Positions 13,088-63,365 of a DNA stretch of 64,000 nucleotides are shown piece by piece; the stretch's first letter is position 1, and every line of letters starts with the position of its first letter. The stretch spans positions 21,514,001 to 21,578,000 of the forward strand of contig OX597840.1 of assembly GCA_951406725.2 (NCBI GenBank). The letters run 5' to 3'. Source of the DNA: Octopus vulgaris (Eukaryota). The translations under genes and the position numbers were made by a program. The notes under the pieces are model-generated. The model did not search any database. It was not told the origin of the DNA and saw nothing but the letters and a program-made list of their open reading frames with translations.

Positions 13088-13481
13088 CATACACACACAC
13101 ACATATATACATGAGTGGGGTATACACATACACAAGTACATACGCGGTAGTACAACCTAACATCATTTTTCGAATTTGCTTTGCAAGCCGAAGATGTACT
13201 TTGCCAGAGTCATGATGCCAATAAACACACACCCTGACTGTATTTGACCCAGTTTCAAGTCAGGTACAGCAAAAACTGAAGTGAGCAACAACCAGCGCGT
13301 GTTTACATTGGCAGTATCATCCTCCCAAAGATCAACTACACACACACACATACTCACACACACATACACATACATATATACACTTATATACATATATGTA
13401 CGCATGTATATATATATAATGTTTTAATTTGATCCAGTTAGTCACTTGTTCCTCTGAGTTTTACCTGTGGGTGCCCAGGTT

Positions 13482-13540
13482 CTTCATGACTTACCTGAAG
13501 ATCCTGTGCATTCACAGGCGAAACCTCGGGTAGCATGAGA
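13482..13540 (+). ncRNA. Hammerhead motif, partly degenerate
   Basis: CTGAAGA(13495-501)-t cctgtg catt cacagg c-GAAA(13520-23)-CC tcg G-GTA(13530-32)-gcatgaga, with tcatg/catga pairing in an interrupted helix I. AATAAA follows at 13554. Confidence 0.6.
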
Positions 13541-13732
13541 CTGACTTGACCAAAATAAAGTATATTATTATTGGTGCTTTTTTTCAGACAGTCAACACTA
13601 AATCTGTGTGAGGATATATAATATATATATATATATATATATAATTGAAATTTACAGAAAAACGAAAGACGAAGACAAGTATATGGACAGCAAGCAGGTG
13701 TATTAGCTTGACACTCGGGAAAGTGAGAAAGT

Positions 13733-16212: not shown

Positions 16213-16391
16213 ATGGACACGGATTATATTCTGCAGATTTTCTGGCATGAGAAATTCTGGTTACCTGTCGGTACATCGTGGACGGATCTGGAAAGCCACG
16301 AGAAGAATGTGTATTACCCGAGGGCAGCGGACATGTCTCTGGCAGTGCTGGTCGCCGTCGTCTTTCTGGCTTTCCGATACTGTTACGAGAG
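16213..16391 (+). CDS. CERS: First coding exon of a ceramide synthase (LAG1/TLC family, CerS5/6-like; invertebrate schlank-like)
   Basis: Translates MDTDYILQIFWHEKFWLPVGTSWTDLESHEKNVYYPRAADMSLAVLVAVVFLAFRYCYER, matching the CerS N-terminal pattern FWxExFWLPxxxxWxDL...YP...DL + TM helix + R..FER. It ends at a consensus donor AG|GTAAGT (intron starts 16392, phase 2), where I recall vertebrate CERS5/6 exon 1 also ends. No downstream exon was recognised. Paralog assignment is uncertain. Confidence 0.92.
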
Positions 16392-18925
16392 GTAAGTTGC
16401 GAGAGGTCCAGGCCTTTTCCTTCCCACCAAATAATCTCTCTGTCTCTGTCTCTGTCGTCCTCCTCCTTAGCTGCCTCGTGTCTCCATACATTCACATATA
16501 TACACACACACATACTATATACACACTGTACATTCATATATATATATAATTTATATATATCATATATATTACATATGTGTAGATGTATGTATAATATGTG
16601 TGTATAGACACATATATGTTTGTGTATATATTCTATGTGTGTGTGTGTGTATACATTGTATACCATGGTGACCACATTGTAGTGTTTCGTATATATACCT
16701 TATGTACCTCGGCGTCTCATAAATAGTATACACAACTTTTATATGTATATATATATGTGTGTATATAATATATATAAATATATATGTACATACATGTGCT
16801 TGTATGTGTATATATATATGTACATATATGTATATAAAGCACGTGTGTTTGTGAAGTATATATATGTAATACACATATATATATATATGTATGTATATAT
16901 ATATACACAATCAAACCTCATAATCACATCCTCGCACCTATATAATATATATATATGTATATATATACATATACACACACACATATATGTGTGTGTGTGT
17001 GTGTCCACACGTCTATGTCTGTGTATATGTAAATTGACTCAGTATATAACATGAAAGGATATTAAATTGACATTCTTTATTAGTAAATATATAAATAAAT
17101 ATGATCCACTTAGACACCTTATTATAACATTATATTTATTATATTGTGACACACGTACACACAGATTACTTCATATTAAACTGGAGCGCCCAACGCCATG
17201 GCTCTCACTCCTCCTTACCTTTCTAAGTCACACATCACCACGCTGCTATTACTAAATTTCTAGTCACACCATTGACACTAGTATGCTTACTTCGTTACTG
17301 GTCTCTGCAATTGTACCACATTTCAGGATCCACCCCTCAATCGCTACACACAACTATTTTTCTAGACACTCCACAGGCACCCTGATAAACCGTTTTACTA
17401 ACCAACCCGCTCTCATCGGGGCTCGGGACTTGTTACACTCGCTACACCTTGATACAACAAGAAACTGTCATACCACACCATTTTTTTTTCTTTCACAATC
17501 ATACGACGGTAGAGTCATTAACACACATACACGTGCTCGCATCCCCCACATATATATATATATATATGTATATATATGAAACGAGAAAAGCCTTCTAGTG
17601 TGTTTAAGTACTGTGATGTCTATATCTAAGTATATATTAACTGTGTGGTGTGTATATATATACATATATATACGTTATGGGTCTGCACTAATTATTTTAT
17701 TCAACCTAGTTCGAGTTCTTTTCTTGTCCATCATTTCCTGTTCGTCTCCCGTACACATGTTATCATTTAATCAGATGTTCATGTTTTCGATCGTCGCATT
17801 TCTCTCTACACATTCATATTTTTCTATAATAAAATTCCTAGCAGCGGCCGGCATACTTGAGTAACTTTATACCAAAGTTTTTTTCTTTTGCTTTTCTAAT
17901 AAGAATTCATAAACAGCTCACACACAACATATAACCTATTTTATTACAAGCCATAAATGTTTCCAAAGAGGCACGAGGCCACATTTTGGGGGCGAGGCAA
18001 CACTTAATTTAGATCGATCTCTGTTCGTGATTCTATCGACTCCCCCCCATAAATGGTGAAAGATAGGGTTTTGTGGAAATTTGAACTTTGGATGTAATTA
18101 AAAACTGATTGACCGACATAGTGCCCGATCTTAAATAGAAATGGAAAAAAGAAAGAAAACACTTTCACATAATCAATGTAATGATTTCTGCCGTGTGTGA
18201 CAGCATTCGATTAAATCGACCACAACACTTTACTGGTATTTATTTTATGGACACCAAGACAAGATGTTAGACAACGTTGTCACCGGCAGGATTTGAACTC
18301 TGAAGTGGACACAAAGGGACGTAACTAACTTCTCTGTGACATTTTTGCCCGTTGCTCTACCGACTCCGCCGCTTCCGCAGCCGTTAATAAGGATATTAAT
18401 CATCATCATCGTCCTGTCTACTGAATGCACAAGGCCTGATACTTTGGGGGAGGGGAATAGTCGATTACATCGAACCCCAGTGTGTCACTGGTACTTAATC
18501 TGTCGACCCCGAATTCTGTAGGTACAAAACCAGAAGTGTGGGTGAGTGTTAAGTGGATTACATCGGCGTCAGTGCTCGACTGGTTCTTTATTTTACCGAC
18601 CCCGAATGGATAAAAGGTAAAGTTGTCGACCTCGACGGAATTCGAACTCGGAACGTGAAACCGGAAGGAATTCCGCTAAGCACTTTGTCCGGTATGCTAA
18701 CGATTCTACTGACTCATACGATTAATAGTAATTCAAATATGGGGACACAAGGCTCGACATTGAAAGTGGGGTTAACTGATCCCATCAACTCCACTGGTTC
18801 TGTATTTTATCGACCCCTCCCCAACAAATAAATGAAAAGCAAAGTTCACCTCAGCAAGATTTGAACCTAGAATCTTAAAGAGCCGGAAGAAATGCTGTTG
18901 AACATTTTTGTCCGACACTCTAAAC

Positions 18926-21250: not shown

Positions 21251-22405
21251 AAAATCATACAAACAGGTTTGTCTTTTACAGGAGTTTGTGTCAGTGCTGT
21301 GTAAATGCATCCATGCCAGTGGCACATAAAAAGCACCTGGTACACTCTTTTAAGTGGTTGGCATTAGGAAGGGCAGCCAGCCTTAGAAACCATGCTATAA
21401 CAGACAATCGGAGCCTGCTCAGCTCTCTGGCTGACCAACTCCTGTCCAGCCATCCACCCCATGCCAGCGTGGGAAATGGACATTAAACTGTATAACACAA
21501 TGGGATGGGTATGTATCTTAGCTTATATTATTTCTTTATTGCCCACAAGGGGCTAAACACAGAGGGAACAGACAAAAGGATTAAGTCGATTACATCGACC
21601 CCAGTGCGTTACTGGTACTTTATTTATCAACCCCGAAAGGATGAAAGGCAAAGTTGACCTCGGCGGAATTTGAACTCAGAACGTAACAGCAGACGAAATA
21701 CCACTAAGCATTTCGCCCGGTATGCTAACAGTTCTGCCAGCTCGTCACCTTAGCTTATATTACTGTACCTATTATTGATAGAGAGAATATTGAACAAGAT
21801 AGGGTAGCGAATGAGATGGAGGTGGTAGTGAACGAGAGAGAGGGTGGTAGTGAATGAGAGAAGCTGGTGTTATTAGAATTGGATTCTCTCTTTTTACTCA
21901 CAAACACTCATCATCATTGTTGCTTTAATGTTCACTTTCATGATTACATGGGTTGGAGCAAATTTCTTGAGGTGGATTTTGTTCTATGGCTGGATGCCCT
22001 TCCTGCTGCCAACCTTCACTCGTTTCCAAGAAAGACAATGTCTCCCCTAACCAGACAGGTCTCAGAAGATTGGAAACAAAAGGACACCACATGCATGAGA
22101 GTAAGCACTGGTTTATAAGTTTCATATGATGCCAAGGAGACAATAACACACACACACACACAACTCTGTGTGTGTGGTAGACATCTTTCAGTTATTTGAT
22201 TGTGGCCATGCTGGGGCACTGCCTTGAAGGGTTTTAATCAGACAAATCAACCCCAGGACTTATGTTTTTTAACCCTAGTACTTATTCTGTCAATCTCTTG
22301 CCGAATCGCTAAGTTACAGGGACAGAAAAACATCATCATGGGTTGTCAGGTGATGGTGGGGGAAAAACAAAAACACAAAGACACACACATGTGGATGGAT
22401 GGATG

Positions 22406-22473
<68 letters not shown>

Positions 22474-22965
22474 ACAGGCTTCTTTCAGTTTCCATCCACT
22501 AAATCCTCTCACAAGGCTTTGGTTGGCCTGAGGCTATAGTAGAAGACACGTGCCCAAGGTGTCACACAGTGGGACTGAACCCAAAACCAAGTCTTACCAC
22601 CCAGCCATGCTTGTGCTTACAAAGCTTATTTATTGCTATATCTTGATGCAATGGACATCCAAGATGGCAAATAAAATCTCATCAAACCGGTTTCCATTTC
22701 AAATTAAAAGTGCATCAACGCATCAACACCTCCATCACTACAGCAACTGACAAAAGTACAAACACCAGGACTTGTGGTTTCTTAACTACTTTAGACTCAT
22801 CATCATCGTCAGTGTGTATATATGTATATATATATATATATAAAAGCAATAAAGTTAAAGTCTGGTCATAAAGTGACGAATGGTTTTGCGTTCACAAAAG
22901 CTGCAGCTCATCAGACACCATACAACTTTCCGTATCCGAGAGATGAAGAGTTAAATTTGTCTTTG

Positions 22966-23033
22966 TATAGAATCTGATGAGCTGTCCACAAAGCTGCGGC
23001 TTTTGTGGATGCGAAACCTTTGGTCACTCTGTG
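22966..23033 (+). ncRNA. Type I hammerhead ribozyme motif (canonical core)
   Basis: tatagaat-CTGATGA(22974-80)-G[ctgtccacaaagc tgcg gcttttgtggatg]C-GAAA(23013-16)-CC ttt G-GTC(23023-25)-actctgtg. All core nucleotides are present, with G10.1-C11.1, a long helix II, a 3-bp helix III, and helix I with GU pairs. Confidence 0.8.
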
Positions 23034-23809
23034 ACCAGACTTTAACTTTATTGCTCTAATACTTTACAGCTCTAAGGTGGTGAGCTGGCAGAAACGTTAG
23101 CAGGCCAGGCGAAATGCTTAGCAGTATTTCATCTGTCTTTATGTTCTGAGTTCAAAGTCCACCGAAGTTGACTTTGCCTTTCATCCTTTCAGGGTCGATA
23201 AATTAAGTACCAGTTACGTACTGGGGTTGATGTAATCGACTGGTCCTCCTCCCCGCAAATTTCAGGCCTTTAAAGTGTCCTTCTTATTTGGATATATAAT
23301 ACATTGACAAACTATATATATATACTCATCATGCTGGAGTGCTGAACTCTACAAGTTTTTTCATTCTCTCTCTGTTTATTTTCTCTTATTCCTTTCTGTT
23401 GAAGAGCAAAGGCTCAAAACGTAAAAGACTTTTTCATTTCTCTTGAGTGTCTAAATACACCTGTCTTCGTCTTTTGCCTTTCTATAAATTTCAACTATTT
23501 AATATATTAATATGTAAAAGTAAGATTTAAGGATCCAGGTGTAGGAAGTTAGTAAGCTTCAAACAGTCTGTAGAAGGTTTAAAACCAACTTTCTGGAACA
23601 AAAGTGGTTTTATTAATGTAGAAGATTATAAATTTTTCCCATATCGAAGTTCAATAAGCTAAAAAAAGGTTATTTTGTAGTTCACGGTTAGCAGCTGAGA
23701 TTGTTGTTTATGTGAATAAAAGTCCAAAAATCTAAATTTCAAGAATGGAGTAAATAAATGTATAAAGCCTGAATTTTATCTACTCCATTCCCTCAGTTTG
23801 GATATGGAT

Positions 23810-47422: not shown

Positions 47423-47506
47423 GTCAGGATGGCCGAGCGGTCTAAGGCGCCAGACTCAAGTTCTGGTCCACGAATGTGGGCGTGGGTTCGTATCCCACTT
47501 CTGACA
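47423..47506 (+). tRNA. tRNA-Leu(CAA), intronless, with variant T-loop (A58>T)
   Basis: GTCAGGA-TGGCCGAGCGGTCTAAGGC-G-CCAGA-CTCAAGT-TCTGG-long variable arm-GTGGG-TTCGTAT-CCCAC-TTCTGAC-A. The cloverleaf stems pair, anticodon CAA is at 47457-47459, and a TTTT run (possible Pol III terminator) lies at 47514-47517. Confidence 0.88.
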
Positions 47507-62951: not shown

Positions 62952-62986
<35 letters not shown>

Positions 62987-63012
62987 TTTATTTTAAGCAG
63001 CAGAAAAATCAA

Positions 63013-63061
63013 CAAAATCTGTTACTCTGAGTTTCTCGTTGCTGTTCATCAGACAGTTTTG
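63013..63061 (-). ncRNA. Inverted copy of the 63177 hammerhead motif
   Basis: Reverse complement reads caaaactgt-CTGATGA-acagcaacga-GAAACTCAGAGTA-acagattttg; one helix II substitution relative to the + copy. Confidence 0.6.
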
Positions 63062-63176
63062 CTAGAATGGAACATATATATTAATTCAATCTATACTCTT
63101 ACAAACGCTACACCTTTATATATAATATAGCGTTTGTAATAGTATAGATTGAATTAATATATATGTTCCATTCTAG

Positions 63177-63226
63177 CAAAAACTGTCTGATGAACGGCAA
63201 CGAGAAACTCAGAGTAACAGATTTTG
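63177..63226 (+). ncRNA. Minimal type I hammerhead motif with palindromic helix III
   Basis: caaaaactgt-CTGATGA(63187-93)-a cg GCAA cg a-GAAA(63204-07)-CTC a GA-GTA(63214-16)-acagattttg. Helix I pairs 9 of 10 bp, helix III is ACTC-A-GAGT (dimer type), and position 10.1/11.1 is a non-canonical A.A. Confidence 0.7.
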
Positions 63227-63326
63227 TTGATTTTTCTGCTGCTTAAAATAAAGCATATTACTCTACCACTGGTATTTGAGTACTCTTTTTTCCACCTTGT
63301 TTCACATTTATGTGTTTACTCCGGTC

Positions 63327-63365
<39 letters not shown>

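Follow-up and report, generated by a model that had tools for sequence, protein, structure and literature searches.

A ceramide synthase intron carrying a hammerhead motif

The window, by which we mean the whole 64,000-nucleotide stretch of Octopus vulgaris DNA that was analyzed, contains the first coding exon of a ceramide synthase (CerS) gene and the beginning of a long intron. Within this intron lies a hammerhead ribozyme motif with an inverted copy of itself just upstream. The features are as follows (a dot means that no strand is assigned).

16213–16391, +: first coding exon of a ceramide synthase 5/6-like gene (amino acids 1–59), from tblastn with P0002/P0003; the GT donor at 16392 was read directly
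16392–64000 and onward to window-equivalent 86358, +: CerS coding intron 1, about 70 kb, from protein homology with splice sites read directly
22817–22842, dot: (TA)n tract, left edge, likely target site
22839–22916, −: inverted, 5′-truncated copy of the element end, without the tail, from alignment to family copies
22917–23074, +: direct, 5′-truncated element end (3′ UTR / pLTR of a Hydra-clade Penelope-like element, PLE), from matches to the dispersed family
22966–23033, +: type I hammerhead motif, read directly; predicted cut after C23025
22966–22973 paired with 23026–23033, +: hammerhead helix I, with an A·C mismatch at the second pair (22972/23027)
22974–22980, +: hammerhead core box CUGAUGA
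22981–23012, +: hammerhead helix II, 13 bp with two bulges
23013–23016, +: hammerhead core box GAAA
23016–23024, +: hammerhead helix III, 3 bp with a U3 loop
23023–23025, +: cleavage site triplet GUC
23075–23267, dot: very high-copy interspersed repeat, SINE-like (an inferred label), inserted later into the tail
23268–23316, +: remaining part of the tail (about 65 nt in all), a 73–86% match to the tails of other copies
23313–23324, dot: (TA)n tract, right edge
62977–63330, dot: insertion of a second, unrelated, young Hydra-clade family in CerS intron 1, with cores at 63052 (−) and 63187 (+)

The next CerS exon (amino acid 60 onward) begins at window-equivalent 86359, after an AG acceptor (86358, in L060) on the same strand as the GT donor of exon 1, and a TLC-domain exon downstream of the window is 100% identical to a ceramide synthase 5-like protein from Octopus sinensis. 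These splice sites support the assumption, made in an earlier sequence-only reading of this DNA, that the motif and its inverted copy lie within CerS coding intron 1 with the motif in sense. A tRNA gene at 47423–47506 (+; Rfam score of 53.8 bits) is also in sense inside this intron, and its CAA anticodon and long variable arm identify it, by inspection, as a leucine tRNA. Upstream of the CerS start codon, there are hammerhead-like cores at 13495 and 13931 (+) that resemble published Hydra motifs. The region 13480–13545 folds with a z score of −3.1, and neither core satisfies the hammerhead descriptor.

The conserved core of the motif (CUGAUGA and GAAA) and its NUH cleavage site (GUC) are intact, and all of the coordinates proposed for the core and the site were verified by direct reading. 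Calling the motif canonical was an overstatement: a search of Rfam gave zero hammerhead family matches, both for the whole window at the gathering score and for 22600–23300 at E ≤ 10, and the second pair of helix I, which is paired in 36 of 44 family copies, is the A·C mismatch at 22972/23027. Similarly, helix II is long, as proposed, but this is a trait of the whole family and not peculiar to this copy: by alignment column, 41 of 45 aligned family copies have 31–32 nt between the boxes. (Among the others, one copy has 30 nt, two have 22 nt, and one aligns with a shifted 5′ end.) The T at 23019 is absent from 43 aligned copies, yet 4–15% of contig depth lacks the majority A at this position, and U3 loops are known among the Hydra hammerheads published in the supplement of PMC8557442; for these two reasons, it is not callable as a private defect. 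The helices at 22966–23033 are able to form, with an active fold that is predicted to lie 5–8 kcal/mol above the ensemble for the isolated motif. In six other testable copies, the predicted cost was similar or higher.

The inverted arm keeps CUGAUGA (22914–22908, which reads TCATCAG at 22908–22914 on the forward strand), and the rest of its core is damaged: GAAA has become AAAA (22887), helix III is broken, and 12 nt of helix II are missing in a deletion that is flanked by short direct repeats. The claim of an inverted, decayed partial copy was thus correct. Its G-to-A change is common to 10 of 43 other copies, and the identical 12-nt deletion recurs independently in another copy (L052). The arms (22839–22908 and 22992–23061) are 86% complementary over 70 nt, and 22845–23055 folds at −113.6 kcal/mol (z = −15.9; 0 of 200 shuffles were as good), so the proposed hairpin of about 210 nt also stands.

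The junction between the arms, at 22916/17, is bridged by contigs from three DNA runs (X1, X2, and X3); the inversion is therefore genuine rather than an artifact of assembly. The bridging contig from X1 has 0 differences from the locus, and those from X2 and X3 show 9 gap letters and 5–6 substitutions, so samples differ at this locus. The runs that contain it carry the labels of two organisms (A and B). A putative RNA run (X15) yielded 13 contigs, none of which bridges the junction. These are other copies of the family, because they are 85–95% alike, and they have no bearing on expression, as their strand and ends are not readable. One 556-nt contig from organism B (X3, record 20) contains a copy that is one letter off 22935–23047. 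A more diverged copy faces it head-to-head at a distance of about 310 nt, which gives the near-identical sense arm a different junction; the arrangement may be an allele, a duplicate, or the result of conversion.

Both arms as the truncated end of a Penelope-like retroelement

The hammerhead arm is a dispersed repeat. A first-look search of the genome gave 580 candidates, and the 40 that were scored are mostly 82–90% identical to the arm. Nearly all of the scored matches cover one arm only; the exception is one locus (L002/L020) that covers the full query. The aligned loci, which are the top matches and not a random sample, were taken with flanks of about 1.5 kb. Family copies share a common 3′ end and have variable 5′ truncation points, with the hammerhead near the 3′ end of the element.

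Upstream of the hammerhead, longer copies contain remnants of a reverse transcriptase (RT) and of a GIY-YIG-type C-terminus, in broken frames. The order of RT, linker, endonuclease (EN), and hammerhead can be read, again in broken frames, in L050 and L045/L035. An endonuclease piece is 37% identical over 111 amino acids to a full-length relative (P0005), and an RT piece has 3,081 relatives at E ≤ 0.001. L050 has DKT, a modified DKG motif. A CxCx5C linker is present in L045, L050, L051, and L055, with a one-residue variant in L049, and the C-terminus of L035 has CxxC and CxH motifs around conserved E and N residues. CCHH is absent from the endonuclease, as judged by eye in decayed copies. The retrieved copies of this older family all stop short of the region of RWK, an N-terminal motif of Hydra-clade elements; RWK is present in the second family (L086). 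In the endonuclease of L045/L035, an N/T/S-rich, low-complexity stretch of more than 100 residues separates the GIY-like and YIG halves.

Several general resources did not name the element. Pfam gave no RT or GIY-YIG match for one endonuclease piece, six element pieces, and four longer proteins (for the latter, solely unrelated matches below threshold). A PDB sequence search with the endonuclease piece found nothing relevant, and looking up the clusters of 10 of the RT relatives did not yield a name. When the RT piece was used to search for homologs, one protein came back: an Octopus bimaculoides model that is named for a PH domain and is probably chimeric.

According to section 11 of Craig et al. 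2021 (PMC8557442), the Hydra clade of Penelope-like elements is characterized by a C-terminal GIY-YIG domain with CxxC/CxH, a CxCx5C linker, and DKT; the same paper describes insertion into (TA)n and a hammerhead near the 3′ end. The motifs of the longer copies match this set, which places the family in the Hydra clade. By these motifs and by-eye comparison, we take the family to be the sister of Hydra-1_Obim from O. bimaculoides. The sequence-only reading had omitted that both arms are the truncated 3′ end of such a retroelement, as family membership and the RT and endonuclease remnants indicate.

Hydra-1_Obim is the closest of the known systems that we compared. As described in PMC8557442, it shares DKT, CxCx5C, CxxC/CxH, and (TA)n insertion with the locus family; in both, ACC/GGU forms helix III of a hammerhead close to the 3′ end, and, by eye, L050 matches Hydra-1_Obim almost residue for residue over the RT. 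The two differ in that Hydra-1_Obim has a 7-bp stem, a GUU site, and a different 3′ UTR, whereas the locus family has a 13-bp helix II (32 nt between the boxes), a GUC site, and the long N/T/S-rich insert in the endonuclease, where Hydra-1_Obim is much shorter. Also unlike Hydra-1_Obim, all copies seen of the locus family are decayed. Among the metazoan PLE hammerheads of Cervera and De la Pena 2014 (PMC4209133), type I topology and a large helix II recur. A short, near-palindromic helix III that is suited to dimers is shared with these and with PAc of Anolis (Frangieh et al. 2024, PMC11167929), although it is a real 3 bp in the locus family versus the minimal form that these two sources give for metazoan PLE hammerheads. 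They put the tail of the known PLE system at 30–40 nt, versus about 65 nt here.

The surroundings of the arms are those of an insertion. The element is bounded by (TA)n tracts, and in 34 of the 44 aligned copies of the family, a microsatellite of the TA/CA type lies no more than 120 nt from where the alignment ends. The family has two preferred 3′ ends that are about 65 nt apart: of the 44 copies, 23 are short and 11 have the tail. At this locus, the short arm ends at position 937 of the reference copy and the tailed arm at 1003. The tail is interrupted by the interspersed repeat at 23075–23267, which has an inverted, 85% identical copy at 21584–21753 and a summed depth in the millions; the tail of the element resumes beyond it. 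Similarly, PAc has two sites at which reverse transcription starts, which bound its tail and give two 3′ ends separated by it (PMC11167929).

Head-to-head copies are found at 11 of 42 other sites (or 12 of 43 with the locus itself; one of the 12 is ambiguous), and five of the others have the geometry of this locus, with a short inverted arm and a longer, tailed one. Junction positions differ among the 12 sites. In PMC8557442, insertions of endonuclease-positive PLEs are described as often having an inverted, 5′-truncated copy at their 5′ end, and often a tail at one end only. A head-to-head pair is therefore the normal shape of such an insertion, as both that description and the 11 of 42 other sites show. 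Pairs of PLE hammerheads on opposite strands, 100–700 bp apart, are also reported in PMC4209133. Penelope-13_HM, a Hydra-clade consensus from Repbase, carries a hammerhead on each strand (PMC8557442, files S1 and S2); its inverted copy is 966 nt long and intact, whereas the arms at our locus are under 230 nt and decayed. Tail-to-tail pairs of the older family (L010 and L008) were seen at 3 of 43 sites, one of them ambiguous, and are probably due to repeated targeting of one TA tract.

The locus could have formed in a few steps. The endonuclease of the element would have cleaved the two strands of the target at the (TA)n site, and the RNA of the element would have been reverse transcribed from two starting points, one at the short end and one at the end of the tail. 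Both cDNAs would have stopped early and may have been joined at a short, imperfect microhomology near 22914–22923. The SINE-like repeat would have split the tail later. On this account, the hammerhead would be cargo of the element, and any masking of it in the CerS pre-mRNA, which is predicted, would be a by-product of the geometry of the insertion.

Predicted masking and probable weak cleavage

The sequence-only reading had proposed that the antisense arm, which is made first, could sequester the ribozyme and so prevent cleavage of the intron. The energetics are compatible with sequestration. If the upstream arm is present, the active fold is predicted to cost 38 kcal/mol at the earliest transcript length at which it can form and 46 kcal/mol when the transcript is complete; if that arm is left out, the predicted cost is the 5–8 kcal/mol given above. 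If the intron is transcribed, then the ribozyme is predicted to be masked.

The protective role that was attributed to the arm is a different matter, and it found no support. The two arms are 85.5% identical over 69 nt, and the sense arm is 83.8% identical to unrelated copies that were found through the ORF (12 copies) and 85.5% identical to the top matches (29 copies), so there is no excess identity between the arms. Across 45 copies, 84% of helix cells pair and the core is intact in 19; covariation in the helices is not above that of shuffles, as 303–444 of 500 shuffles reach the observed values. What speaks against simple decay is that the sense arm, whose core and GUC site are intact, is better preserved than most copies: it has 4 differences from the family majority versus a mean of 8.9 (3 of 43 copies are as good), and the antisense arm has 9 differences and a deletion. 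This comparison is biased, as the search was run with the sense arm as query, and 4 versus 9 is a small count. Some of the changes in the sense arm weaken the fold. One is the A·C mismatch, which adjoins the cut site. Another converts a U-A pair to U·G; with this change, a rival hairpin of 9 bp that covers the cut site becomes complete, and the isolated motif is predicted to prefer it. A third weakens the self-dimer through helix III from −8.9 to −5.1 kcal/mol. Overall, the pattern fits decay after insertion, and nothing points to selection for masking.

Would the motif cleave if it were not masked? The sensitivity of hammerheads to mismatches is expected to reach the second pair of helix I. 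According to a review (PMC3138052), mismatches close to the core are not tolerated; its statement concerns the first pair 3′ of the site. A PLE hammerhead of Schistosoma showed no cleavage as a monomer (PMC4209133), and that of Anolis depended on the protein of the element, with no ends indicative of cleavage among the RNA-seq reads (PMC11167929). Because such motifs reportedly need a dimer partner or the element's protein, the octopus motif probably cleaves poorly even when unmasked, with the caveat that these hammerheads belong to other clades and that the transfer to octopus is by analogy. A need for masking is thus doubtful. A further point against a protective role comes from CerS intron 3, which contains a hammerhead-like repeat in sense orientation that belongs to a third family (L060:5700–5945, window-equivalent about 89807) and stands alone, with no inverted partner within 3 kb. 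This third family has 387 candidates at 86–93% identity, and the repeat ends near (TA)n. Among the literature matches listed, we found no direct precedent for intronic antisense sequestration of a retroelement hammerhead, and the preprint of Craig et al. was the sole relevant match on octopus hammerhead ribozymes.

Alternative explanations and the young family

We put the probability at roughly 0.9 that the hairpin represents the 3′ end of a Hydra-clade PLE, now decayed, with head-to-head arms in a (TA)n site within CerS intron 1, and that it likely has no host function. A variant keeps this origin and makes the inverted arm the condition of survival: the pre-mRNA could be cleaved by the sense hammerhead, and masking by the arm would be what allowed the insertion to persist. 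The order of transcription suits this variant, as the upstream arm is made first and would pair over the core at a cost to the active fold of 38 kcal/mol from the earliest point of its formation. It is also the antisense copy whose core is broken, and tandem retrozymes are described as depleted from the introns of Xenopus (10.64898/2026.07.22.740005). Both of the descriptor-positive sense motifs in intron 1 (22974 and 63187) lie within hairpins, although two of two is no statistic. We nevertheless consider this variant quite unlikely, given the unpartnered sense repeat in intron 3, the undetectable or protein-dependent cleavage of the metazoan PLE monomers that were tested (PMC4209133, PMC11167929), and the competing hairpin that the isolated motif favors over its cut site.

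Two other explanations give the hairpin a life of its own, and we regard both as very improbable. Editing of A to I is heavy in coleoid cephalopods, and the arms are predicted to form a duplex of about 70 bp in the pre-mRNA. The hairpin might have been kept by the host as a switch or as a double-stranded editing target that tunes the processing of CerS pre-mRNA; its occurrence in runs labelled as organisms A and B would agree with this. If editing is present, it would be expected of any comparable repeat, and neither the lack of excess identity between the arms nor the gap letters and substitutions in two of the three bridging contigs suggests that the structure is being kept. (Among the matches listed, no contig from organisms C or D bridges the junction, which carries no weight.) Alternatively, the whole 210-nt hairpin could be a mobile unit, similar to a MITE or a retrozyme, that is copied as a block, and the full-length match at L002/L020 might seem to be another such copy. 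The junction in L002 differs and the 12-nt deletion is not found there, the other scored matches cover a single arm, and the differing junctions at the 12 head-to-head sites contradict block copying. Non-LTR retrozymes, as described in 10.64898/2026.07.22.740005, likewise have a type I hammerhead in a short, non-coding repeat that is related to PLE ends, but they form head-to-tail tandem arrays. This defining arrangement is absent here: there are no head-to-tail tandem hammerhead units at the locus, where truncated ends of a coding element meet head-to-head.

The reading as a decayed PLE insertion gives the Hydra clade a further octopus family, decayed and with a helix II of unusual length, although the family may already stand in Repbase or Dfam. 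It also implies that hammerhead-in-hairpin calls in the octopus genome should be read first as scars of Penelope insertions. A broader idea, which we think has a small chance of being right, is that head-to-head PLE insertions mask their own hammerhead whichever strand is transcribed, because the antisense arm is always transcribed first. Such insertions would be tolerated in introns in both orientations, and solo, sense, working copies would be purged. If so, then the thousands of such ends in octopus introns would show an orientation bias that serves as an in vivo read-out of cutting by PLE hammerheads. On its own, the locus matters little. It would gain interest from an orientation bias across the genome between solo and head-to-head copies in introns, as this would bear on whether PLE hammerheads cleave in vivo.

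For a test of masking, the insertion at 62977–63330 is better suited than the locus at 22966–23033. It has the same layout of (TA)n, inverted arm, direct arm with tail, and (TA)n; its direct arm is 97% identical to the inverted one and has an intact hammerhead core. This young family has 1,838 candidates, many of them 99–100% identical, and about six other compact inverted copies are among the 40 that were scored. It is likely to have been active recently. Its RT is 44% identical to that of the older family. Upstream of the window, L069 (window-equivalent about −24239) has a hammerhead-like motif that adjoins a short inverted repeat. L086 (G000:C27:29164400–29170800) and L087 (G000:C4:30035000–30038200) are long head-to-head copies of the young family with nearly open RT-EN frames (582 amino acids in L086). 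In both, past the direct hammerhead, the ORF restarts with RWK and DKT, which makes these copies partial tandems.
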